Positions 12,663 through 24,058 of a stretch of DNA of 50,087 bases are shown here, piece after piece; position 1 is the stretch's first letter; the number at the start of each line of letters is the position of its first letter. This DNA is from a virus. Its lineage: Duplodnaviria; Heunggongvirae; Uroviricota; Caudoviricetes. The position numbers were made by a program, and so were the translations under genes. Below the pieces are notes generated by a model. It had not been told where the DNA came from. It did no database searches and worked only from the letters and a program-made list of their open reading frames with translations. Location of the stretch: IMG/VR virus record IMGVR_UViG_2529292836_000016. One strand, given 5' to 3'.

Positions 12663-13469
12663 ATGAAAGATAACAATCAGAAAAAAATGATATGGCATGT
12701 TGCCTGTGATGAATCTGGCGTTGATGGGCAGCCATTCTACGGATTTGGGAGTCTCTGGATGAGCTATCAGAGGCGCGCTGAACTCACTCGCATGGTACAG
12801 GATTTGAGAAAAAAGCATGGATGCAGTGATGAGCTCAAATGGCAGAAAGCACATTCAAAGCGTAATGCAGCTTTTTATAGCGACGTCATTGATGTGTTTT
12901 TTAGGCACAACTGGATGGCTTTTCACTGTATTATTGTTGAGAAGTCTAAAGTAGAAAAATCATATCATGGTGGGGATTATGATCTTGCAATGCGTAAGCA
13001 TTTTTGCAAGCTTATTGAAACCAAAATAGGTAACGTGATCCAAAGGTGGCCTCATGCGGAATGTGAGTTCCTTATAGAAGTTGATCCCCTGCCATCTCGT
13101 TACAAAAAAGCCGATGAAGAGTTTCACATAATTGCCAACCATTCTCTGGCCCGAAAATATGGGCGCAAGGACATAATTAAACTAGTTGAAACAAAAGACT
13201 CAAAAACATCGGAACATATTCAGCTTGTCGATTTTTTATTAGGGGCTGTAATGTGTGCATATCAAAGGAAAGCCACTTCTCCAGCGAAACTGGCTATGGC
13301 AGAGAAAATCGCTTCTTATCTTGGGTGGGAATCATTACGGCACGATACCTGGCCGACAGAACGAAAATTCAATATCTGGTTGTTTTTTGATAAAAAGAAG
13401 GGGCCAAGAGATATTGAAACGAAAGAGGTTAATTTGCGATATAAATTACCCCCTTTGCGTAAAAAATAG
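12663..13469 (+). CDS. DUF3800-like protein (cargo at the P2 old/tin-equivalent locus)
   Basis: 268 aa; N-terminal 'IWHVACDESGVDGQP' resembles the DUF3800 D-E-S-G signature; markedly lower GC than flanking phage genes; convergent with parMR. Confidence 0.5.
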   Translation: MKDNNQKKMIWHVACDESGVDGQPFYGFGSLWMSYQRRAELTRMVQDLRKKHGCSDELKWQKAHSKRNAAFYSDVIDVFFRHNWMAFHCIIVEKSKVEKSYHGGDYDLAMRKHFCKLIETKIGNVIQRWPHAECEFLIEVDPLPSRYKKADEEFHIIANHSLARKYGRKDIIKLVETKDSKTSEHIQLVDFLLGAVMCAYQRKATSPAKLAMAEKIASYLGWESLRHDTWPTERKFNIWLFFDKKKGPRDIETKEVNLRYKLPPLRKK

Positions 13470-13700: not shown

Positions 13701-14012
13701 TTATTCGGGGAATAACGCCCTGATATTTCCGGCCATCTGACTGGTTATCTGTGCGGTTGGTACTGGCTGTGACACGGGGCGTTCTGTCCTGGTTTGTGTC
13801 ACGGATAACGCCTCATCGTCAGCCCATGCAGCTAGTCGGTAAGCCTCTGCTGGATTCATTTTCAGAAGTGCCAGCCCAGCCAGAAAAGCCACGCGTTGGC
13901 CGCTTTTGCGGGCTTCTGGTGTAAGGCTGTCCAGCCAGGCGCATGCTTCGCTTTCGTTCTTGACGGCCGCAGGCTTCAGATAGAAACTTATCCGTCTGGT
14001 TGGTGTCGTCAT
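13701..14012 (-). CDS. parR: ParR-like partition adaptor
   Basis: Trimmed to 'MTTPTRRISFYLKPAAVKNESEACAWLDSLTPEARKSGQRVAFLAGLALL...', resembling plasmid R1 ParR N-terminal RHH region; immediately downstream of parM. Start uncertain. Confidence 0.55.
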   Translation of the reverse strand: MTTPTRRISFYLKPAAVKNESEACAWLDSLTPEARKSGQRVAFLAGLALLKMNPAEAYRLAAWADDEALSVTQTRTERPVSQPVPTAQITSQMAGNIRALFPE

Positions 14013-14016
14013 TGGT

Positions 14017-14976
14017 TTACTCCTTGTCCATTGCGTACAGCCCATTAACCAGAGCAAACTGTGGCACCCCGTCCGCGATGAAAGTCGCATTAACTCCGCA
14101 GGCTTCGCGGATAGCGGGTGCCACAATCTCCGCCCCTCCACCGACAACCATCACCCGCCCGTAACCGGAAAAACCCGCCAGCGCGCGGATCACTCGTTGT
14201 TTCAGTGTCTCCTCCTTTTCACGAATAACCGCCATCAGGCTGTTGTAATGCGCGTCATTGTGAATGTGCTGGCGCAGCCAGGCTTCATCGTGACGGTGCT
14301 CAATAATGGTATTGGCGATGTGGTGACTGGTACGCATACCGTTAGTGGCCATCACCGACAGTACGGCATCGGCCATCAGGGAAACGCCTACGTGTGGATC
14401 GCAAAACACCTGGCTGATACCTGCCAGTTGTCCCTGAACCTTTGCCACATCCAGCGTGGTTCCGCCTAAATCCACAATCAGCAGGGATTCAAACGGACTC
14501 ATGTCAGCCAGTGCCTTAAAGCCAGCCGGAATGGATTCAGGCATAACCCGTACATTACGGATAGTGAATGCTTCGCCGTTCTGGTATTCCACCGGGCGCA
14601 TAACGTTCGCTTTTTTGCGGTTGATGTTGGCCATGTCCGGCTGTGCGTTTGTGTCGAAATACTCGCTCAGTGGCAGGGTGACAACCACATCCACCTCCTG
14701 TGGCGTGATGCCTGATTTGACCAGCGCGTGATGAATGGCAATGACATTCACATCACTGTACTGATATTGCGTGTCAGTCGTCTGGACAAAGCGATCGCTG
14801 ACCGGATCAAAACCATAGCGCACGCTATCAAGCATGTAGTTCGCGGGCTGCGTGCCACCGAACGGCGCAGACCATTCCGACTTGAAGCTGTTCGGGCTGA
14901 TGGCGTTGCGGCGTTCGCCGTTCTCAGTCCATGCCAGCTTGATGTTGGTGGAGCCGTCGTCGATACAAATTTTCAT
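14017..14976 (-). CDS. parM: ParM/StbA-family actin-like segregation ATPase
   Basis: 319 aa; 'ICIDDGSTNIKLAW', 'YSDVNVIAIHHAL', 'VMPESIPAG', 'LIVDLGGTTLD', 'VMVVGGGAE' match ParM (plasmid R1) motifs throughout. Confidence 0.85.
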   Translation of the reverse strand: MKICIDDGSTNIKLAWTENGERRNAISPNSFKSEWSAPFGGTQPANYMLDSVRYGFDPVSDRFVQTTDTQYQYSDVNVIAIHHALVKSGITPQEVDVVVTLPLSEYFDTNAQPDMANINRKKANVMRPVEYQNGEAFTIRNVRVMPESIPAGFKALADMSPFESLLIVDLGGTTLDVAKVQGQLAGISQVFCDPHVGVSLMADAVLSVMATNGMRTSHHIANTIIEHRHDEAWLRQHIHNDAHYNSLMAVIREKEETLKQRVIRALAGFSGYGRVMVVGGGAEIVAPAIREACGVNATFIADGVPQFALVNGLYAMDKE

Positions 14977-15004: not shown

Positions 15005-15118
15005 TCGTTTACGGGATTTTTAAATCCCGTTTTCGCCTGTTTTGTGCGCGCTTCATATATCGCGGCGCGTTTTTTGCTCATTTACGGGATTTGTGAATCC
15101 CGTTTCTGTCTGTTTTTT
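15005..15118. repeat. Two copies of an about 38-bp direct repeat, each with a TTACGGGATTT/AAATCCCGT palindrome
   Basis: Copy 1 about 15007-15045, copy 2 about 15078-15116; located at the parM 5' flank and gene A 3' end. Confidence 0.5.
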
Positions 15119-17875
15119 GTTTCTACTGGTCAGGCCACCCCGCAGCAGGTCTGCTTTGCGGCGGGCGCGTTCAGTTGTTTCACTGATTCTCTGTGCGTGC
15201 TCTGCGTCACGAATGGCGCGCAGCATGTCAGAAAGCACGGTAACGGGGGTTTTCATGGTGTTCTGGTCCTGCTGAAGTGTGGATGCCAGACGTGCGGCGG
15301 CTTCGGGGTCTGATGCCCCCAGCTGTTCCAGATAGCTGGCGACCGGGTTATGGCGGATCTCCGTGCTGCTTACGCCGTGATTACGGCTCAGGTGCTGCCA
15401 GAGCTGCGTGATTCGGCTGTCCGGGCGGGTATCCGGTTTGCGTACAATTTCAAATCCCTGTGGTGCAATGATGCTGCCGTCAACGTACAGGCTGCCGCCC
15501 CGTAACAGGTGCTGCATCTGCTGTTCACCGATATGCAGGCCGAGAGATTCGGCAGATTCCCGCCATTCTTTAGCGAGTAATTCGTGGTTATCAGGCAAAG
15601 GCCGTGGCTGTTTGCGGCTCTGTGTCCAGTTCTGCATTTCATCACTGCTGTTTTTTGCCTGCTTGTCACGCAGCGAACGCATCAGCGCCCGGCGTTCGTG
15701 CCGTTTCAGTGAGCGCATCCATTCGTTCACTTCAACGCCGTCAGGGAGCTGCGGCCACGGTGCTGGCCGTTCTTCCGGCTGTTCTGTCCCGTTGTTGCCT
15801 GTTTCCTGTACACGGGGACAGTTATTGCCACGAGTCCAAGGGGCGGCAGGGCCGCCCTGAAGGTCAAAACCATTTTCGCGGGCGCTGTCTTCCGCTTCCG
15901 GTTTGCGTCTTACCAGCTTCCAGTTATCCGGATGCGTGCACACACGGGAGGATTCCCCGATGAGTGGTGACCAGATCCCGTAAATCTGTACGCTCTGTTC
16001 GCCGTAATCGTTCAGCTCATCTGCGAGGTCGTAGGCGGTGCGAATCAGGTAGTCTTGGCGTGGAACAAGTACGCCGCCCTGTTTCTCTATGTAGGAGGCA
16101 AAACACCCGGCATCAGCGGCAGCGAGCACTGCATCCATTGCGTCATCCTTCAGCCGTTGCGGGCCTTCCGGGTTGCGTGCCATCTGGCTGGCAAGGCGGC
16201 GCAGTTCACGCCACACCTGACGGGAGGGGATGCCAAAGAACTGGAACTGGCGGACCCGGTGAAGGCGCGCCCAGCCGATGGCGCGCTCCACGCTCTCGGC
16301 CATTGATTTTCCGGTTTCGTGGTCAACGCGTGGCTTGCCCGTTTTCGGGTCGATACCATCCACGGCGCGGCTGTCCAGGTTCTTTCCGATGTAGGTGGCG
16401 ATGTAGCTGGTCGGTGTGCCTTTTGAGCCGTCGACGTACTCTGCCTTAAAGCGTGGGGTAATATCATCACCCAGCTCGTGACGATCTTCCTGAATGGCAA
16501 TATCGCGGGTGTGGGACACAATGGTGTCGATTTCTTCCGGATGAGCAAAGACCATCATATGCCAGTGCACGGTGCCGTCATGGTGAGGCTCCACCGTGCG
16601 GATGCCATACCAGCGCAGGCCGTCGCGGTTCAGTTTCTTGCGGACCGCCGCAAAAAACGAGTTAACCAGGTAATCGCTGGAGTCGCGCATAGTGGCCCCG
16701 TTCCATTTGGGATTCGGATGACCGTTCTCCGTTGTTGCGTGGTACTTCGAAGGGGTGGTGACAGTCAGAAACACCGCTCTGTCGCCACGGGCTTCGGCCA
16801 GAAGTTCCAGCCCCTTCATGGTGGCCATCATTTCTGCCTTACGGTGAACCGGGTTACTTACTCCCGCGTAATACACTGTCTCAAGATCAATCGTGAACCC
16901 GTCTTCGTTTTCCAGCATGAAACTTTTCAGGAAATCGCGTGTTTTCTCGCGCTGTGCGCGAAACTCGCTTAACGCATCCTGGCTCAGATAGGGCGATGTT
17001 TTTCTGGAAACCAGACAGGCGGCGCGGAGTTGTTCTTCTCTCCACTCGCAACGTAACAGCCACAGTTTGCGTTTCCACCATTCCGCACAGGTCAGGCGAA
17101 GGATTGCGCCCGGCAGCAGCTCCGTGTCTGGTTCGTTCCTCCGGCCTTTGTCTGTTGTCAGTGCGTCATAATGCGGAGGCATGGCGTGCAGGTGTAACGC
17201 CATGCGGGCCAGCATCTGATACGCCTTCAGCGTTACATCCATGGTCAGCTCGCCATCAGTCGCACCAAAGCCATCGCAGAGTTTTTCGAAGGTGCTGCTG
17301 AACATCGCCGCCGTCATGGTGGCCAGCGTCTGTATCTGGTGTTTGTTGAGCTGCGGCAGGTAAAGCAAATCGTCCAGGCGTTCGCGTCCGGCAAGGGAGC
17401 GATAACCCGGTGTCAGCCAGTGTCCGTCAGTGCGATCCAGACGTTCGAATATTTTGCGCAGGGTTCCGCGTGCATAGCGTTCTGCCTGCCAGCTCTTTTT
17501 GCCTTTCCGGCGATCGACTTCCTGTTTTTTGCGCAGGAAGGAGAGGTGGCGAATAAGCGGATCGCGCAGATAGGACGGCAGCAGGCGCAGCGAGGCCATG
17601 GCTTCATCCACCGCGCCGCGTGCCTGTCTTCTGGCGTCTCCTGCCAGCGTGATGGTTTTGTCCTGTTTTTCCTGTGCGTCCAGGCTTTTATTAATCAGGT
17701 TGCCCAGTGGCGTGGCAGAGAACGCCGCATCAGCCTTTTCCTGTCGGCGCTCGTTCTCTGCCTGGTAGGCATCCAGCCAGGAGGAAAGCGCGGATTCAGG
17801 TGCGGGGATCCCCGTTCCTTCACGCCCCACTGCGTGGCGCGGTTGTTGCCAGTCCCTGATGTACTCTGTCGTCAT
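15053..17875 (-). CDS. A: Replication initiation endonuclease gpA-like (rolling-circle Rep)
   Basis: 940-aa ORF (true start may be internal); 'VEPHHDGTVHWHMMVF' HUH-type motif and 'YIATYIGKN' tyrosine motif typical of P2 A family. Confidence 0.8.
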   Translation of the reverse strand: MTTEYIRDWQQPRHAVGREGTGIPAPESALSSWLDAYQAENERRQEKADAAFSATPLGNLINKSLDAQEKQDKTITLAGDARRQARGAVDEAMASLRLLPSYLRDPLIRHLSFLRKKQEVDRRKGKKSWQAERYARGTLRKIFERLDRTDGHWLTPGYRSLAGRERLDDLLYLPQLNKHQIQTLATMTAAMFSSTFEKLCDGFGATDGELTMDVTLKAYQMLARMALHLHAMPPHYDALTTDKGRRNEPDTELLPGAILRLTCAEWWKRKLWLLRCEWREEQLRAACLVSRKTSPYLSQDALSEFRAQREKTRDFLKSFMLENEDGFTIDLETVYYAGVSNPVHRKAEMMATMKGLELLAEARGDRAVFLTVTTPSKYHATTENGHPNPKWNGATMRDSSDYLVNSFFAAVRKKLNRDGLRWYGIRTVEPHHDGTVHWHMMVFAHPEEIDTIVSHTRDIAIQEDRHELGDDITPRFKAEYVDGSKGTPTSYIATYIGKNLDSRAVDGIDPKTGKPRVDHETGKSMAESVERAIGWARLHRVRQFQFFGIPSRQVWRELRRLASQMARNPEGPQRLKDDAMDAVLAAADAGCFASYIEKQGGVLVPRQDYLIRTAYDLADELNDYGEQSVQIYGIWSPLIGESSRVCTHPDNWKLVRRKPEAEDSARENGFDLQGGPAAPWTRGNNCPRVQETGNNGTEQPEERPAPWPQLPDGVEVNEWMRSLKRHERRALMRSLRDKQAKNSSDEMQNWTQSRKQPRPLPDNHELLAKEWRESAESLGLHIGEQQMQHLLRGGSLYVDGSIIAPQGFEIVRKPDTRPDSRITQLWQHLSRNHGVSSTEIRHNPVASYLEQLGASDPEAAARLASTLQQDQNTMKTPVTVLSDMLRAIRDAEHAQRISETTERARRKADLLRGGLTSRNKKQTETGFTNPVNEQKTRRDI

Positions 17876-17881
17876 ACTGAT

Positions 17882-18247
17882 TTACTGCGTCATACCGTTC
17901 AGGGTGTCACGGCAAACGGCAGCCAGCCGCTGAATTTCCAGCACGGTGTCTTCTGTGTCGGCATAGCGATGTGTGATGCGGATGCTGTCGGCAATCACAT
18001 CGACGATTGCAGAGGATGGGCGCTGGTAAATGCCAATAACGGACGGAGTGCCACCTTCAATGCGGTAAAGCCTGTAATTTCCCTCGTGGCTGTCAATCAT
18101 GTAGCGACCATCAATAACAATCTTTCCGTCAGCGAGCTGCGGTACAGGCAGGGATTTCAGGTACATGTCATAACGTTCACGCACGCGAACGGCAAGATCA
18201 CGCTCTGTGTTGAGCAGGTATTCAAGAAAGTCGTTGGCGAGAATCAT
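17882..18247 (-). CDS. Hypothetical early-operon protein
   Basis: 121-aa ORF ending 6 nt before gene A start. Confidence 0.5.
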   Translation of the reverse strand: MILANDFLEYLLNTERDLAVRVRERYDMYLKSLPVPQLADGKIVIDGRYMIDSHEGNYRLYRIEGGTPSVIGIYQRPSSAIVDVIADSIRITHRYADTEDTVLEIQRLAAVCRDTLNGMTQ

Positions 18248-18319
18248 TGCGGCAATCCTCTTGTTACAGATGTGCGAAGGCCTCCTGCCGCAAGGTGCAG
18301 GAAAGGCCCGGAACAGGAA

Positions 18320-18550
18320 TTAATGGAGTTTGTTTTGCTGCTGGATGAGCTGCTGAAGCTCGCGCAGATCATCCGCCAGATAACTGAAAACAGCGGATGA
18401 GTAGAGGTTTGAAAGTTCGCAGCTACGCTCATGCAGCATATTGATGTGCATGATTTTAGCGACGCGGAATGCGCGGGAAAGTCTGCGGTTGATTTCAGTC
18501 TGGATGTGACGACGCTCCGCGATAGCGCGGTGCTGTTTGCGGTTTGCCAT
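18320..18550 (-). CDS. Hypothetical small basic protein
   Basis: 76-aa ORF with ATG start (MANRKQHRAIAERRH...). Confidence 0.4.
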   Translation of the reverse strand: MANRKQHRAIAERRHIQTEINRRLSRAFRVAKIMHINMLHERSCELSNLYSSAVFSYLADDLRELQQLIQQQNKLH

Positions 18551-18717
18551 GGTGTGGCCTCTTTGGTTGTAAGTTTTGAAAACTCACCATCCAGAGCTGC
18601 GAAACTGTGGGTGGCGAGACGTACGGGGTTCGCAGTACCGGCAACCAAAGAACCCGGCCCGACCGAAGTCGGCCCCGTACGCCCCGCCATAATTCTGACG
18701 CGAAAAAAACGTGGCAA

Positions 18718-18745
18718 TACAGTACGCACAAAAAAACCGCTGGCG
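18718..18745 (-). terminator. Putative intrinsic terminator downstream of the SPFH cassette
   Basis: Stem aaccgc/gcggtt preceded on plus strand by an A-run (U-tract on minus strand); a second hairpin ccggccag...ctggccgg lies at about 18886-18912. Confidence 0.4.
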
Positions 18746-18917
18746 CGGTTGTGCGCTTTGGTTGTCAGCAGGCTGCGAAACCCGGCACCCGTTTTATGAG
18801 GTGCAGCGAAAATGTAACCTGACTGATTGCGGCATGGCAAGCGGTTTTTTTGTGAGAACGGCATACTAAAAAATCCTGATACTGCTCCGGCCAGCGGTTT
18901 GCACTGGCCGGGTGTCA

Positions 18918-19748
18918 TTACTTCACGGGAACGAACGGAACAGCGGTGTTACTGGTCATGTATTGCGGCAGCGTGCCGTTCCATTTGTTGATTGCTTCCA
19001 GCTCCATAACGCCGGGATTCTGGCGCAGAGCTTCGCCGCGTAAACGAATGGCGTCGGCTTCAGCCTGGGCTTTTGTGCGAATGGCATCGGCCTGTCCGGC
19101 AGCTTCTGCGCGCAACATGTTGGCTTCTGCTTCGCGCTGCTTGACTTCCTGTTCGCGTTGCAGGGTTTTCTGGTTTGCCGTGACTTTGGCGTTAATGCTG
19201 TCGATAACGGTTGGCGGATATTCCGGTTTACCGACATAAGAGAGGCTCATGACCTGAATACCGATGGGGGTCATCTCTTCCTGAATATCTTTAAGTGCTG
19301 AATCCAGCAGTTCAGACTTACCACCGTCGATAAACTTATCGGTGGTCATTTTGCTGGCCAGTCGGTTGAGTGCATCGGCGATCTTCTGGCGCAGGTCAGT
19401 GTCGGTAATGTCGTCCACGCCTTTGCGGTAGGTCTGAAACACCGTGGTAACTTTGGATGGATCAACTTTGTAGGCCACGCCGATGTGATAGCCGATGGTT
19501 GTGCCGTCACTCATCTGGAAGTTGAACGGCTCATCGTAACTCTTCATTTGTTTGAAGGTCGGGAAGATGTAACCCTCTGTATTCCAGCCTGTCCAGTAGC
19601 GGCCAACGCCAACCACTTCACCGACGCCTTTGTCGTCGCCCAGTTTGTTGACTTTGATGCCCACATTACCTGGCTCAACGCGATCGCAACCAACCAGCAG
19701 GATGGCGGCAAAAAGCGGGAGAATCTGAAAGAGTCTGAATTTCTTCAT
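18918..19748 (-). CDS. SPFH/band-7 (HflC-like) domain lipoprotein
   Basis: 276 aa; signal peptide with lipobox 'LLVGC'; C-terminal Ala/Glu/Gln-rich coiled coil typical of SPFH proteins. Confidence 0.65.
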   Translation of the reverse strand: MKKFRLFQILPLFAAILLVGCDRVEPGNVGIKVNKLGDDKGVGEVVGVGRYWTGWNTEGYIFPTFKQMKSYDEPFNFQMSDGTTIGYHIGVAYKVDPSKVTTVFQTYRKGVDDITDTDLRQKIADALNRLASKMTTDKFIDGGKSELLDSALKDIQEEMTPIGIQVMSLSYVGKPEYPPTVIDSINAKVTANQKTLQREQEVKQREAEANMLRAEAAGQADAIRTKAQAEADAIRLRGEALRQNPGVMELEAINKWNGTLPQYMTSNTAVPFVPVK

Positions 19749-19948
19749 TGTTTGATTTCCTTGATGTACTTACTGAAAAGGCGAACAACGCCTGCCGGGT
19801 ACAGCATGGCAATGAAAATTCCCAGCAATACCAGGAAGGAGCTGTCTGATGAAATCATTCGGGGGAGTAGTCCTGCATACAGAATGAGAGAGACGAGGAC
19901 GCATACCAGCGCCCACATGTATGCGCGAAACCAGGTCTTTTTGTTCAT
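19745..19948 (-). CDS. Small membrane protein (two predicted TM helices), partner of the SPFH gene
   Basis: 67 aa, hydrophobic (WALVCVLVSLILYAGLL..., VLLGIFIAMLYPAGVV); 4-nt overlap with SPFH gene. Confidence 0.55.
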   Translation of the reverse strand: MNKKTWFRAYMWALVCVLVSLILYAGLLPRMISSDSSFLVLLGIFIAMLYPAGVVRLFSKYIKEIKQ

Positions 19949-19959
19949 ATCGCGGTCCT

Positions 19960-20259
19960 TTACTGGTTAAGGAAAAAATCGAAAACGTTGTCGATGCGTT
20001 GCAGCGGCTCCTGCTGCATTGCTTCCGGCGTTTCTGATTCACCTGGTGACTCCAGCGTCGCGCAAAAATCCTTGATTTCATGATGGAGCGTCAGACGAAT
20101 GGCAGGAGCCATGGTTCTGGCGTGCTCCAGCTCATCCAGCAGTGCCAGCACGGCAGATGGCGAGAGCATTGCGCGAAACGCCAGTAATTTTTGATGCGTT
20201 GCCATTCGTTGCAGGTCAGTCGCCAGCTCGCGTAATTCCTGGTGGTTGATGGCGCTCAT
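19960..20259 (-). CDS. Hypothetical early-operon protein
   Basis: 99-aa ORF in a tightly packed co-oriented gene string. Confidence 0.5.
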   Translation of the reverse strand: MSAINHQELRELATDLQRMATHQKLLAFRAMLSPSAVLALLDELEHARTMAPAIRLTLHHEIKDFCATLESPGESETPEAMQQEPLQRIDNVFDFFLNQ

Positions 20260-20522
20260 GCTCTGGCTTCCTTCAGTAGCAGGTTAAACATGTGAGTAAG
20301 TGGATTGCTACACCCGAACGGCATCGGGTTTACGTGGTAAGAAGCCTGGCCTCCTGCTTTGCGAGCGCGACCACCTGTGCTGCGGTTTGTTCTGATGACT
20401 AAGCCGCCGCGCCAGAGTCGGCGTAACTCAGCATTGATGGCTGTGGTTGGGGTATTCAGTGCTGCGGCGATTTCTCCGCCGCTACAACCCGGATGGGTAG
20501 CGATGTAGTCCAGAATGGTCAT
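20256..20522 (-). CDS. Putative winged-helix DNA-binding protein
   Basis: 88 aa, 'ILDYIATHPGCSGGEIAAALNTPTTAINAELRRLWRGGLV' HTH-like. Confidence 0.5.
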   Translation of the reverse strand: MTILDYIATHPGCSGGEIAAALNTPTTAINAELRRLWRGGLVIRTNRSTGGRARKAGGQASYHVNPMPFGCSNPLTHMFNLLLKEARA

Positions 20523-20722
20523 CTGCGTGACTCCTGTACCTGTCGGATAAGGTTTACCCGCACCACATTCGTGGCGCAGAAGTAAGTGCCGTCAGTGAGA
20601 TAGATGTGATGTGCATCCTTTTCCGAACGATGTTTGTCGATAGTGGTAATCAGTCGTTCGTCGACCTCGTATTCGCGGTCTCTGGAGGTGAAGCGAACGA
20701 CAGGAAAATGCTTAATTGCCAT
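20519..20722 (-). CDS. Hypothetical early-operon protein
   Basis: 67-aa ORF with overlapping stop/start with neighbours. Confidence 0.45.
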   Translation of the reverse strand: MAIKHFPVVRFTSRDREYEVDERLITTIDKHRSEKDAHHIYLTDGTYFCATNVVRVNLIRQVQESRR

Positions 20723-22610: not shown

Positions 22611-23015
22611 ATGAAAAATGATATTGGTCAGCGGTTGCGTGAGGAAAGGGAAAGATTGGGACTTAGTCAAGTTGCCATGAGCGACATTGGTGGAGTCAAA
22701 AAGCTAACTCAGCTTAGATATGAGAAAGGAGATAGCTTTCCTGATGCTGCGTATTTGGCAGCGCTGTCTCGTTTTGGCCTTGATGTTCAGTATGTTGTGT
22801 TGGGAATTCACTCACCTGAAACTTATAACGATGATGAGCAGGAGTTGATTACTCGCTTTCGAGCAGCTTCGTTAGATGTGAAAAACGCGGTGATTGGGGC
22901 TTTAAAAGGTGCGATCAGTGAAAAGGAAACTCAGCCATCAGGACGTGAGTTAAATATTTCTGGTGGTAATAACCGTATCGCTGGTCGTGACTATAACGAA
23001 ACTAAGGGCAGGTGA
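22611..23015 (+). CDS. Immunity repressor, XRE-family HTH (C/CI-like)
   Basis: 134 aa; 'IGQRLREERERLGLSQVAMSDIGGVKKLTQLRYEKG' HTH_XRE; divergent from early operon; upstream of int. Confidence 0.8.
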   Translation: MKNDIGQRLREERERLGLSQVAMSDIGGVKKLTQLRYEKGDSFPDAAYLAALSRFGLDVQYVVLGIHSPETYNDDEQELITRFRAASLDVKNAVIGALKGAISEKETQPSGRELNISGGNNRIAGRDYNETKGR

Positions 23016-23030: not shown

Positions 23031-23681
23031 ATGGCCGTCAACTCAAACGGTTCAAACAATCGCGTTGCTGGGCGTGATTTTCACGAAAAGAATATTCAGA
23101 TAGAGCGATATGATGGTTCTCATACCGTCAATATCGCAATCCCTTCGAATAATGATGATGACGATCGCCCTTTGCTTAAGGCTCAGCGTAAGGAGCTAAA
23201 TAGCTTGGTTGCTGCTATTGCAGAAGCTAGCAATACTGAAGCGTTTATTATTTGGCAAAAAGTACATGCGGAGATTGGTGTAGCTGGTATTGATGATATG
23301 ACAGTAAATCAATATAAAACAGCGGAGAGTTTTCTGCATGCAATGCTTGAGCGATGTAAAGATCATGATGCCTGTAAGGCTCTTGTAAGTTTATTACTAC
23401 GTAACAGTGAAGACTGTGGACTTCGACAAAAACTTCTGCGGTATTGCCATATCAATTTCGGTACAGGACGTTTAAACGATCTTACTCGTTCTCAGTTACA
23501 GTCTGCATTGTCGTGGTTAGAGCAACAATCGGCATCAAGCCACACAGAGAGTTCGACCTTACCAGAAGTCCGACTTCGTGCTTCAGAATTAATCCGACTT
23601 TATCCAAAAGAAATAATATTCTTTATCTGCGTAGGGGGTTTGGTAGGCGGTGTCATTTCTAGAGCGTTTTTTAATTTGTAA
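23031..23681 (+). CDS. Hypothetical tail-anchored membrane protein (moron between repressor and integrase)
   Basis: 216 aa; C-terminal TM 'IIFFICVGGLVGGVISRAFF'; N-terminus repeats the repressor C-terminal motif NNR[IV]AGRD[YF]. Confidence 0.55.
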   Translation: MAVNSNGSNNRVAGRDFHEKNIQIERYDGSHTVNIAIPSNNDDDDRPLLKAQRKELNSLVAAIAEASNTEAFIIWQKVHAEIGVAGIDDMTVNQYKTAESFLHAMLERCKDHDACKALVSLLLRNSEDCGLRQKLLRYCHINFGTGRLNDLTRSQLQSALSWLEQQSASSHTESSTLPEVRLRASELIRLYPKEIIFFICVGGLVGGVISRAFFNL

Positions 23682-23710
23682 TCTTACTTGAGCTAAATTG
23701 AGGTAATGAT

Positions 23711-24058
23711 ATGAAAGTTAAAAAGGTTCAACTATTAGTTACTTTTTTATCTATGTTTTCTTTTTCCGCCGTCGCAATGCCTTTTAAAACCATTGAACGT
23801 GAGAGTTTCAATGGGGTGTGGCCATTTAATACTGATGAGGTTCAATTACAGTGTCTTGATGGTAATCCTTATGTAATGAATTTTGACGATAATAAGTTAT
23901 ATGCACTTACAGGTTTGGCTCGAATAAAAGGTAAAACATTTGGTGCGTTACCGTTAGATAACAATAATCCATTTTGGCTAGATAATGATGCCACCCCAGG
24001 GTTAAAAAAGAGTCTGGGGGATGTCACTAAGGCTGCATTTGATTTATGTGATAAGTAA
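23711..24058 (+). CDS. Hypothetical secreted protein (moron)
   Basis: 115 aa with cleavable-looking signal peptide 'MKVKKVQLLVTFLSMFSFSAVA'. Confidence 0.55.
   Translation: MKVKKVQLLVTFLSMFSFSAVAMPFKTIERESFNGVWPFNTDEVQLQCLDGNPYVMNFDDNKLYALTGLARIKGKTFGALPLDNNNPFWLDNDATPGLKKSLGDVTKAAFDLCDK

Follow-up and report, generated by a model that had tools for sequence, protein, structure and literature searches.

What does a Band-7 lipoprotein gene, coupled to a gene for a small membrane protein, do in the early operon of a P2-like prophage? The question is raised by IMG/VR virus record IMGVR_UViG_2529292836_000016, whose whole 50,087-nucleotide stretch is here called the window. The window DNA belongs to E. 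coli, with 99.9% identity to strain TW10722, and its prophage, which adjoins yecA, is P88-type and P2-like (Xuanwuvirus, Peduoviridae). Two overlapping genes on the minus strand encode a 276-amino-acid (aa) lipoprotein with an SPFH domain and a 67-aa partner with two predicted transmembrane (TM) segments. Our preferred reading, to which we assign a probability of about 0.55, is that they form a mobile, promoter-less, early-lytic module whose two products would assemble in an HflK/C-like manner on the periplasmic side of the inner membrane. The features on which the analysis centers are as follows.

18855..19959, minus strand: accessory cassette of 1105 bp (an 11-bp spacer with the ribosome-binding site, two overlapping genes and a 63-bp 3′ tail)
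18918..19748, minus strand: SPFH/Band-7 lipoprotein gene, 276 aa (PF01145; phrog_200)
19745..19948, minus strand: inner-membrane partner gene, an open reading frame (ORF) of 67 aa with two TM segments (phrog_1130)
19960..20259, minus strand: Ead/Ea22-like early gene, the upstream boundary of the cassette (phrog_4144, 2.6e-60; weak Pfam Ead_Ea22 match)

The SPFH lipoprotein and its two-TM partner

The original prediction described a lipoprotein with an SPFH-like coiled coil and a 67-aa two-TM protein, and both were recovered. The larger protein matched PF01145 (Band_7/SPFH; E 6e-30, 105 bits against a gathering threshold of 23.6) with residues 23-209, over positions 2-176 of the 176 in the profile, and matched the phrog_200 'lipoprotein' profile at E 1.7e-110 (profile positions 82-359 of 379). 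The phrog_200 profile bears an N-terminal extension of ~80 residues, consistent with the fused family members considered below. Residues ~180-245 correspond to a long helix, a coiled coil of ~65 residues, and the C-terminal motif KW-x-G-x-LP (KWNGxLP) is near-invariant throughout the family.

The N-terminus, read from the sequence as MKKFRLFQILPLFAAILLVG-C21-D22, is a signal peptide ending in the lipobox L-V-G-C with Asp at position +2, and its context (...AAILLVG-C21-D22-R23) fits [LVI][ASTVI][GAS]C followed by Asp+2, the E. coli criterion for inner-membrane retention. By this Lol-avoidance rule of E. coli, lipoproteins with Asp at +2 are retained in the inner membrane. Asp+2 was found in the window protein and in four of six copies from enterobacterial phages. 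A lipobox is present in at least 104 of 140 family representatives (50% identity), and representatives without the Cys have an uncleaved N-terminal TM segment directly ahead of the conserved V-P-x-G-x-V-G-V strand, which would again place the SPFH domain outside, tied to the cytoplasmic membrane. The topology and the inner-membrane retention of the SPFH lipoprotein are predicted from these sequence features.

The partner matched phrog_1130 ('membrane protein') at E 1.3e-22. It has hydrophobic segments at ~9-28 and ~38-55, positively charged ends and the loop PRMISSDSS; hydropathy and charge distribution predict an N-in/C-in topology. The periplasmic-loop motif P-x-[LM]-[IV]-S-x-x-[DS] is kept in alignment A2 and in the fused forms. 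The stop codon of the partner gene overlaps the SPFH start codon by 4 bp (ATGA), and AGGA motifs lie 9-10 nt ahead of both start codons. The partner gave no Pfam family at E≤0.01 and no convincing NCBIfam match. Six partner homologues matched no NfeD, Imm or other exclusion family in Pfam at E≤10; the best match, to the RseC_MucC TM hairpin, was sub-threshold (E 0.03) and was treated as compositional. An NfeD- or T4 Imm-type identity of the partner was therefore rejected.

An AlphaFold2 model was made for the monomer of a fused homologue (P0001, 95% identical to the window SPFH protein) from 141 sequences. The model (predicted local distance difference test 90.2, predicted template modelling score 0.71) starts at the N-terminus with three helices, followed by a beta-rich SPFH domain, more helices, a 65-residue helix (250-314) and a short C-terminal helix. 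Among PDB structures, Foldseek placed HflK/HflC first (E 4e-13), then prohibitin, erlin and stomatin (to 1e-10), with flotillin, QmcA (E 1e-7) and vault lower down; the probability was 1.00 to HflK/C, prohibitin, erlin, stomatin and flotillin. By sequence, HflK was the only relative in the PDB (E 0.002). On the full-length profile match and the modelled cage-type monomer fold, the window protein is a member of the SPFH superfamily. Proteins of this superfamily (HflK/C, prohibitins, stomatins, flotillins) are membrane cages with debated roles.

The closest structural comparison is with the E. coli HflK/HflC-FtsH complex (PDB 7vhq, 7wi3, 9cz2). The phage protein shares with HflK/C the SPFH1/2 domains, the long coiled-coil helix, the C-terminal segment and, as predicted, an SPFH domain on the periplasmic side of the inner membrane. 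However, HflK/C have an N-terminal TM helix where the phage protein has an LVGC lipobox and lipid anchor, and they are a heteromeric SPFH pair, whereas the phage has one SPFH gene and a separate two-TM partner. Orthology to HflK or HflC was rejected, with identities of 17-19% and scores far under the equivalog cutoffs (TIGR01932 HflC, 25.7 vs 134.4 bits; TIGR01933 HflK, 22.4 vs 159.4 bits).

SPFH-NfeD operons (QmcA-YbbJ, PDB 8z5g; YqiK-YqiJ; archaeal stomatin with an NfeD-type protease) likewise combine an SPFH gene with an adjacent, co-oriented gene for a small membrane protein, but the phage partner has no NfeD/OB-fold domain and its gene comes first. A further difference lies in orientation: the SPFH domain of QmcA is cytoplasmic and that of the phage protein is predicted to be periplasmic. 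The MbpV-MbpS genes of Kayvirus (Staphylococcus phages K, A5W and G1) also encode an SPFH homologue, a distant one (24-25% identity), behind a small membrane-protein gene, and in a strictly virulent phage (PMC7150955). In contrast to the window pair, MbpS has an N-terminal TM segment or an atypical lipobox, the genes adjoin lysis genes, and MbpV, with one TM segment and a charged tail, is unrelated to the two-TM partner. The pair is thus predicted to be a variant of the SPFH-plus-small-partner theme, set apart by its lipid anchor, its extracytoplasmic SPFH domain and a partner that is not of the NfeD type.

An accessory cassette shared by unrelated phages

Homology to cassette-free relatives (P88_4B11 and an O145 prophage) ends at 18854 and restarts at 19960, and the slot, which holds 1105 bp in the window, holds 18 bp in both relatives. 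It opens right past the stop codon of the Ead/Ea22-like gene, so that the cassette begins 11 bp beyond the preceding early gene, and it closes at the conserved sequence that opens an isrK-like RNA. The slot is empty or almost so in sister Xuanwuviruses; in another lineage it is occupied by a 183-aa ORF. Among 5426 complete E. coli genomes, 145 had the cassette, and a synthetic cassette-less junction was matched at ≥80% coverage in 955 genomes; of 44 junction rows sampled evenly down the ranking, 42 were uninterrupted 714-bp matches (empty sites, 18 bp). With 145 occupied against ~955 empty or short slots, about 1 in 8 (~13%) of the prophages of this lineage carry the cassette.

The cassette is accessory, horizontally mobile cargo and not a core component. 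Such cargo had been called atypical for P2, and the P2 early region indeed has no such gene pair. A check for the contrary case, a conserved core component of the lineage with a replication role, was negative, because the cassette is accessory, with empty slots in sister Xuanwuviruses and in ~955 E. coli genomes. The presence/absence between collinear phages that is expected of a moron was observed, whereas the expected promoter and terminator of its own were not found for the cassette (by an insensitive consensus scan, and with a hairpin that has no U-tract).

The same cassette is annotated in phage P88 (NC_026014 / KP063541) as gp11 (membrane protein) and gp12 (lipoprotein / putative SPFH domain protein), in the same slot and lineage, and in RefSeq E. 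coli genomes. Window and P88 share 95.3% DNA identity over 1801 bp, their proteins are 98.5-98.6% identical, and the two pairs have no difference of substance. The cassette is already annotated, its gene pair is not lineage-specific, and its family is catalogued and uncharacterised.

Close relatives of the SPFH gene were found on different backbones. In the lambdoid phages phiP27 and Stx2, near int-xis, the mature SPFH coding part is 91-92% identical to that of the window at the DNA level, and the SPFH lipoproteins of phiP27 (L05), of the Stx2 phages (as 'serine protease' genes) and of the P1-like pair are 91-92% identical to that of the window. The backbones and slots of phiP27 and the P1-like phages differ, however, and the partners are only 22-45% identical across these phages, with two TM helices and the loop motif kept. 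In phiP27 the partner is an unannotated 62-aa two-TM ORF that overlaps the start of L05 by 4 bp. In P1-like phages (e.g., vB_EcoM-Ro157c2YLVW) the pair sits between the tRNA genes and ban. That slot is taken in canonical P1 by plp-upl-tci, which are unrelated genes, and no SPFH gene was found at 60-72 kb of P1. P1 upl/plp was rejected as a named equivalent: Plp (125 aa) and Upl (63 aa) are encoded on the opposite strand, with a best E of 1.7.

The virulent N4-like phages S6 and Fifi011 (Erwinia), Pylas (Klebsiella) and Paxi (Stenotrophomonas) carry both genes in the same order, with 69-74% identity between the coliphage SPFH protein and the Erwinia and Klebsiella copies. Burkholderia phage Karil-Mokiny and Myxococcus phage Mx1 also have both genes, partner first, and in SPLA5a (Vequintavirinae) the partner lies one gene away from the SPFH gene. 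Context was counted at the 80 best IMG/VR loci: 79 have a two-TM ORF immediately upstream of the SPFH gene; 56 of the 80 are in a P88-like and 21 in a P1-like context. Species-representative genomes with the pair came from Salmonella, Pantoea, Yersinia, Kluyvera, Buttiauxella and Lelliottia. A scan of the genome collection with alignment A1 gave 11 loci, all from Enterobacterales bar one metagenome-assembled genome (MAG) labelled archaeal. At that locus (JANQNF010000027.1), an enterobacterial-type partner is followed by the first 82 residues of the SPFH lipoprotein at 64% identity; it is probably a phage or bacterial contig that was mis-binned into the MAG.

Beyond these close copies, the SPFH family at 50% identity falls into 213 clusters with a cutoff of E<1e-30 and into 913 with E<1e-10. 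A tblastn search of 50,697 phage records gave matches in 773, among them Kayvirus (MbpS), phiCbK, jumbo phages and viruses of haloarchaea, and many of the carriers are strictly virulent. The two-TM plus SPFH pair is widespread and horizontally exchanged across unrelated phages.

The two genes also occur joined. At least 17 of the 140 representatives are a single ORF in which the two-TM partner leads into a signal peptide with a lipobox and then the SPFH domain (P0001, P0124, P0135, P0136, P0140, P0144, P0149, P0167, P0168, P0171, P0178, P0208, P0211 and others). A fusion chain of this kind would span the membrane three times, so that its SPFH domain shares the extracytoplasmic side with the conserved loop. 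Cleavage of the internal lipobox by lipoprotein signal peptidase, if it occurs, would yield two proteins from one fusion product. Synteny across phage families and repeated fusion argue that the two proteins form a functional pair. Compared with the P88, phiP27 and P1-like copies, the ratio of nonsynonymous to synonymous substitutions (dN/dS) was 0.045-0.084, at dS up to 1.1; under such strong purifying selection the two genes are not chance ORFs.

The pair is a mosaic. P88-type and phiP27-type copies agree at ~92% identity in the mature SPFH part (window 18951-19688 vs L003 2514-3253), whereas the signal peptide and the partner gene are swapped for versions with only ~22% protein identity. 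This similarity pattern points to recombination within the pair. In S6-like N4 phages the gene three upstream of the pair (L007, 681-1430; L008, 689-1438) is called 'CLP protease' in Fifi011. The long NfeD partners of archaeal stomatins likewise contain a protease, a likeness that may be coincidence.

Proposed role and competing explanations

We propose that the cassette, lying within the early lytic operon, has no promoter of its own and that its two membrane proteins would be co-translated. The 67-aa protein would insert into the inner membrane as an N-in/C-in helical hairpin whose only conserved exposed feature would be the periplasmic loop. The SPFH protein would be exported, lipidated at Cys21 and most likely, given Asp+2, retained on the periplasmic face of the inner membrane, where it would most likely oligomerise with the partner and cover a patch of membrane with a ring or cage of the HflK/C type. 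The pair would most likely be active in lytic growth and not in the lysogen.

The timing of expression, early in the lytic cycle, is suggested by the arrangement of the genes. No sigma70-like site was detected on the minus strand at 19949-20600 (~650 bp upstream) by an insensitive consensus scan. The pair is co-oriented with the neighbouring early genes in P88-type, phiP27 (int-xis-proximal) and P1-like phages (tRNA-ban), and a C1-controlled operator precedes the ban region of canonical P1. The lack of a promoter-like site, the co-orientation with early genes and the virulent carriers point to a role in lytic growth rather than in the resting lysogen; because virulent phages keep the same pair, any role must pay in lytic growth too. 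As to the benefit for the phage, our guess is that the inner membrane is conditioned or protected, so as to stay intact and energised until lysis, and/or that entry of a second phage's genome is blocked. Exclusion or membrane remodelling during infection is possible.

Several observations weigh against this reading. Position +2 is not constant over the 104 lipobox-bearing representatives (T in 25, S in 23, D in 13 and G in 13), and two Erwinia phage copies have Tyr at +2; because of this variation, and because sorting rules differ between taxa, inner-membrane retention is something that we infer. DL54, Harbringer, Kayvirus (MbpV) and Schiekvirus either have no upstream partner or have an unrelated small protein in its place. 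The structural model is that of a monomer; assembly into a ring or cage and contact with the partner are putative. A weak internal promoter active in lysogens is conceivable, since the promoter scan was a crude consensus search. In addition, 8% of P2 defence systems lie between int and gpA (bioRxiv 10.64898/2026.02.27.708500), so that position alone is not decisive against a defence role, and an HflK/C-like protein of a Pasteurella prophage, a candidate homologue of the phrog_200-type protein, was found in outer-membrane vesicles (PMC9872710). Finally, annotation and speculation, and no functional study or experiment on this SPFH family, were found in the searchable literature, whose authors call the role unclear or speculate on it (PMC13239085, PMC7150955, PMC10269572, PMC8540360).

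Genome papers annotate the protein as a 'serine protease' (a legacy of 'membrane protease subunit'), a lipoprotein or a band-7 protein. A 2026 paper states that its presence in phage genomes 'remains unclear' (PMC13239085); others have speculated on control of lysogeny via FtsH (PMC10269572, PMC8540360, PMC4936722), on help in the secretion of lytic enzymes (PMC7150955), or on adsorption and entry. An analysis of prokaryotic SPFH evolution does not mention phage and lipoprotein forms (Hinderhofer, 2009), a CRISPR interference essentiality map of P1 covers plp/upl, which are unrelated to the SPFH pair, and no data on the timing of Kayvirus mbpS expression were found in the searchable literature.

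Among the alternatives, the pair might be expressed from the prophage for superinfection exclusion or defence, blocking adsorption or DNA entry in the manner of P22 SieA, T4 Imm/Sp or T5 Llp. We consider this unlikely. A membrane location and the combination of a small two-TM protein with a periplasmic anchored one resemble, by analogy only, known exclusion proteins, the cassette is a presence/absence element, the PHROGs category of the partner is 'moron, auxiliary metabolic gene and host takeover', and the int-gpA interval holds the share of defence systems given above. T4 Imm is itself a two-TM superinfection-exclusion protein of the inner membrane. T5 Llp is a superinfection-exclusion lipoprotein (PMC9586334). 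T4 Imm/Sp and T5 Llp are small envelope proteins that lytic phages express early, and the likeness to them is one of analogy only: none of them is an SPFH protein, and no sequence or family relationship was detected in Pfam. Against exclusion by the lysogen stand the position of the cassette inside the lytic early operon, without a promoter-like site, and its wide occurrence in virulent phages, which have no lysogen to protect. In PADLOC-DB v2 the SPFH protein gave no match and the partner only a 21-residue match to PDC-M18B (E 0.008), and the partner homologues gave no Imm or other exclusion family in Pfam at E≤10; membership of an anti-phage defence system was rejected, as no PADLOC match was meaningful. 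The main defence hotspot of P2-like phages is the gpA-portal interval (PMC9122126), and the cassette lies outside it. In the window prophage this hotspot holds a ParM-type partition pair and a DUF3800 protein (12663-13469, plus strand; 13701-14976, minus strand), and the latter protein matches the PADLOC candidate PDC-M04A (E 2.6e-35). Genes at 23031-24058, beside the repressor, are also better placed for expression in the lysogen.

A mimic of HflK/C is about as unlikely. It would capture or shield FtsH or compete with HflK/C, and thereby stabilise regulatory or membrane proteins of the phage and bias lysis-lysogeny or the timing of lysis, as genome papers have proposed (PMC10269572, PMC8540360, PMC4936722). 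The rank of HflK/C among solved structures, by sequence and by structure, the predicted periplasmic orientation, which equals theirs, and the sub-threshold NCBIfam matches to HflC and HflK favour it; the 25.7 bits against an equivalog cutoff of 134, the low identity and the absence of the N-terminal TM helix do not. Because prohibitin, erlin and stomatin match about equally well, the resemblance is to cage-forming SPFH proteins in general. Distant homologues moreover occur in haloarchaeal viruses. To our knowledge, haloarchaea have no FtsH, and we know of no CII-like FtsH substrate in P2-like phages.

Highly improbable, in our estimate, is a lipoprotein of lysogenic conversion or virulence that alters the host envelope or acts on the animal host, e.g., as a vesicle-released Toll-like receptor (TLR) 2 agonist. 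The vesicle-borne HflK/C-like protein of the Pasteurella multocida prophage signals through TLR1/2 and its deletion attenuates virulence (PMC9872710), and enterotoxigenic and uropathogenic E. coli strains are among the cassette carriers. However, that protein (PM0222, OAZ06802.1) is a candidate, unconfirmed member of the phrog_200-type SPFH family, a role in host virulence cannot explain the presence of the family in virulent phages of plant pathogens, soil bacteria and staphylococci, and the conserved two-TM partner and operon position indicate a function in the phage cycle. We give even less weight to passenger DNA, selfish or neutral, that would serve neither phage nor host. The low share of occupied slots in E. 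coli would fit it, as would damaged copies: one frameshifted partner and two loci, from Shigella flexneri (L104) and E. coli (L105), where at ~2650-2990 an InsA-like ORF of what we take to be IS1, recognised by eye, stands in the partner's place and the SPFH gene is alone. The purifying selection, the 69-74% aa identity between the coliphage and the Erwinia and Klebsiella N4-like copies, the gene order kept across phage families and the repeated fusion speak against it.

A broader form of the preferred reading, an early-lytic HflK/C-like assembly, is one that we hold only tentatively. The pair would be one uncharacterised, widespread phage system that builds the virus its own HflK/C-like cage on the outer side of the cytoplasmic membrane. 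This cage would control the membrane of the infected cell and might resist membrane-depolarising abortive-infection effectors or secondary DNA injection, or capture FtsH. The system would extend over phages of Proteobacteria and Myxococcota, temperate as well as virulent, and have distant relatives among the viruses of Gram-positive bacteria and archaea. If true, this would be a new and general class of devices with which phages take over the host or counter its defences.

These data indicate that (i) phages of many lifestyles carry their own version of an SPFH protein, in a large PHROG family; (ii) it has a conserved, sometimes fused, pairing with a small two-TM protein and is predicted to face the periplasm; and (iii) natural E. 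coli P88-type prophages with and without a clean 1.1-kb cassette provide a small genetic system. For the window itself the cassette is ordinary, previously annotated cargo, and the family is of moderate interest.

Structured RNAs and other genes around the cassette

On the minus strand, the early genes of the window prophage extend from the immunity region (~22.5 kb) to replication gene A, with small gaps or none in the ORF list. The features downstream of the cassette are as follows.

18730-18804, minus strand: isrK-like RNA (Rfam RF01394, 65.9 bits, above gathering)
18607-18694, minus strand: C4 antisense RNA (Rfam RF01695, 87.1 bits, above gathering)
18320-18550, minus strand: 'derepression protein' gene, 76 aa (PF25738 Derepression, 6e-07)
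15053..17875, minus-strand context: gene A (gpA; Phage_GPA, E 9e-130)

The pair had been placed between small early genes and gene A. The position is right but incomplete, because the order 3′ of the SPFH gene is hairpin, isrK-like RNA, C4 RNA, derepression gene, a 121-aa ORF and then gpA. The hairpins that were said to follow the pair are mostly two known structured RNAs, given the Rfam matches above gathering; one GC-rich 10-bp stem stands. It has the form CCGGCCAGUG-CAAAC-CGCUGGCCGG at 18887-18911 on the minus strand, 6 nt past the SPFH stop codon, and is found in P88 too; the minus-strand interval 18850-18925 folds at -23.6 kcal/mol (z -2.37). The stem has no adjacent U-tract and is absent from the calls of the terminator scan. 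It was rejected as a canonical intrinsic terminator, because a U-run starts only ~13 nt beyond it.

A sigma70-like site was found by the consensus scan ahead of both the isrK-like RNA and the C4 RNA. Together with the derepression gene, these RNAs look like the c4/antirepressor arrangement of P1 immI within a P2-like early operon, and a weak match to a c4-a1b1 target was seen at 18765-18817. Public records place coding sequences over this region, namely a 'transcriptional regulator' in P88_4B11 and RefSeq pseudogenes called 'ash family protein' or 'hypothetical'. They look spurious, because they overlie the derepression gene as well as the isrK-like and C4 RNAs. The annotated examples are as follows.

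Window 18244-18918, minus strand: 224-aa ORF, judged spurious on the same grounds
L002, 3745-4362: annotated coding sequence over the isrK/C4 region
L005, 3102-3362: annotated coding sequence over the isrK/C4 region
L006, 20102-20419: annotated coding sequence over the isrK/C4 region

A 34-nt stretch of the window (18771-18804) recurs with 100% identity in many other E. coli genomes, inside genes annotated 'ash family protein'.

On the plus strand, in the operon of the immunity repressor and between the repressor (22611-23015) and the integrase, lie genes for a 216-aa membrane protein (23031-23681) and a 115-aa DUF2511 protein (23711-24058), neither of which gave a PADLOC match. They are probably expressed in the lysogen, being on the same strand as the repressor and integrase, and theirs is a more typical position for superinfection exclusion than that of the cassette.

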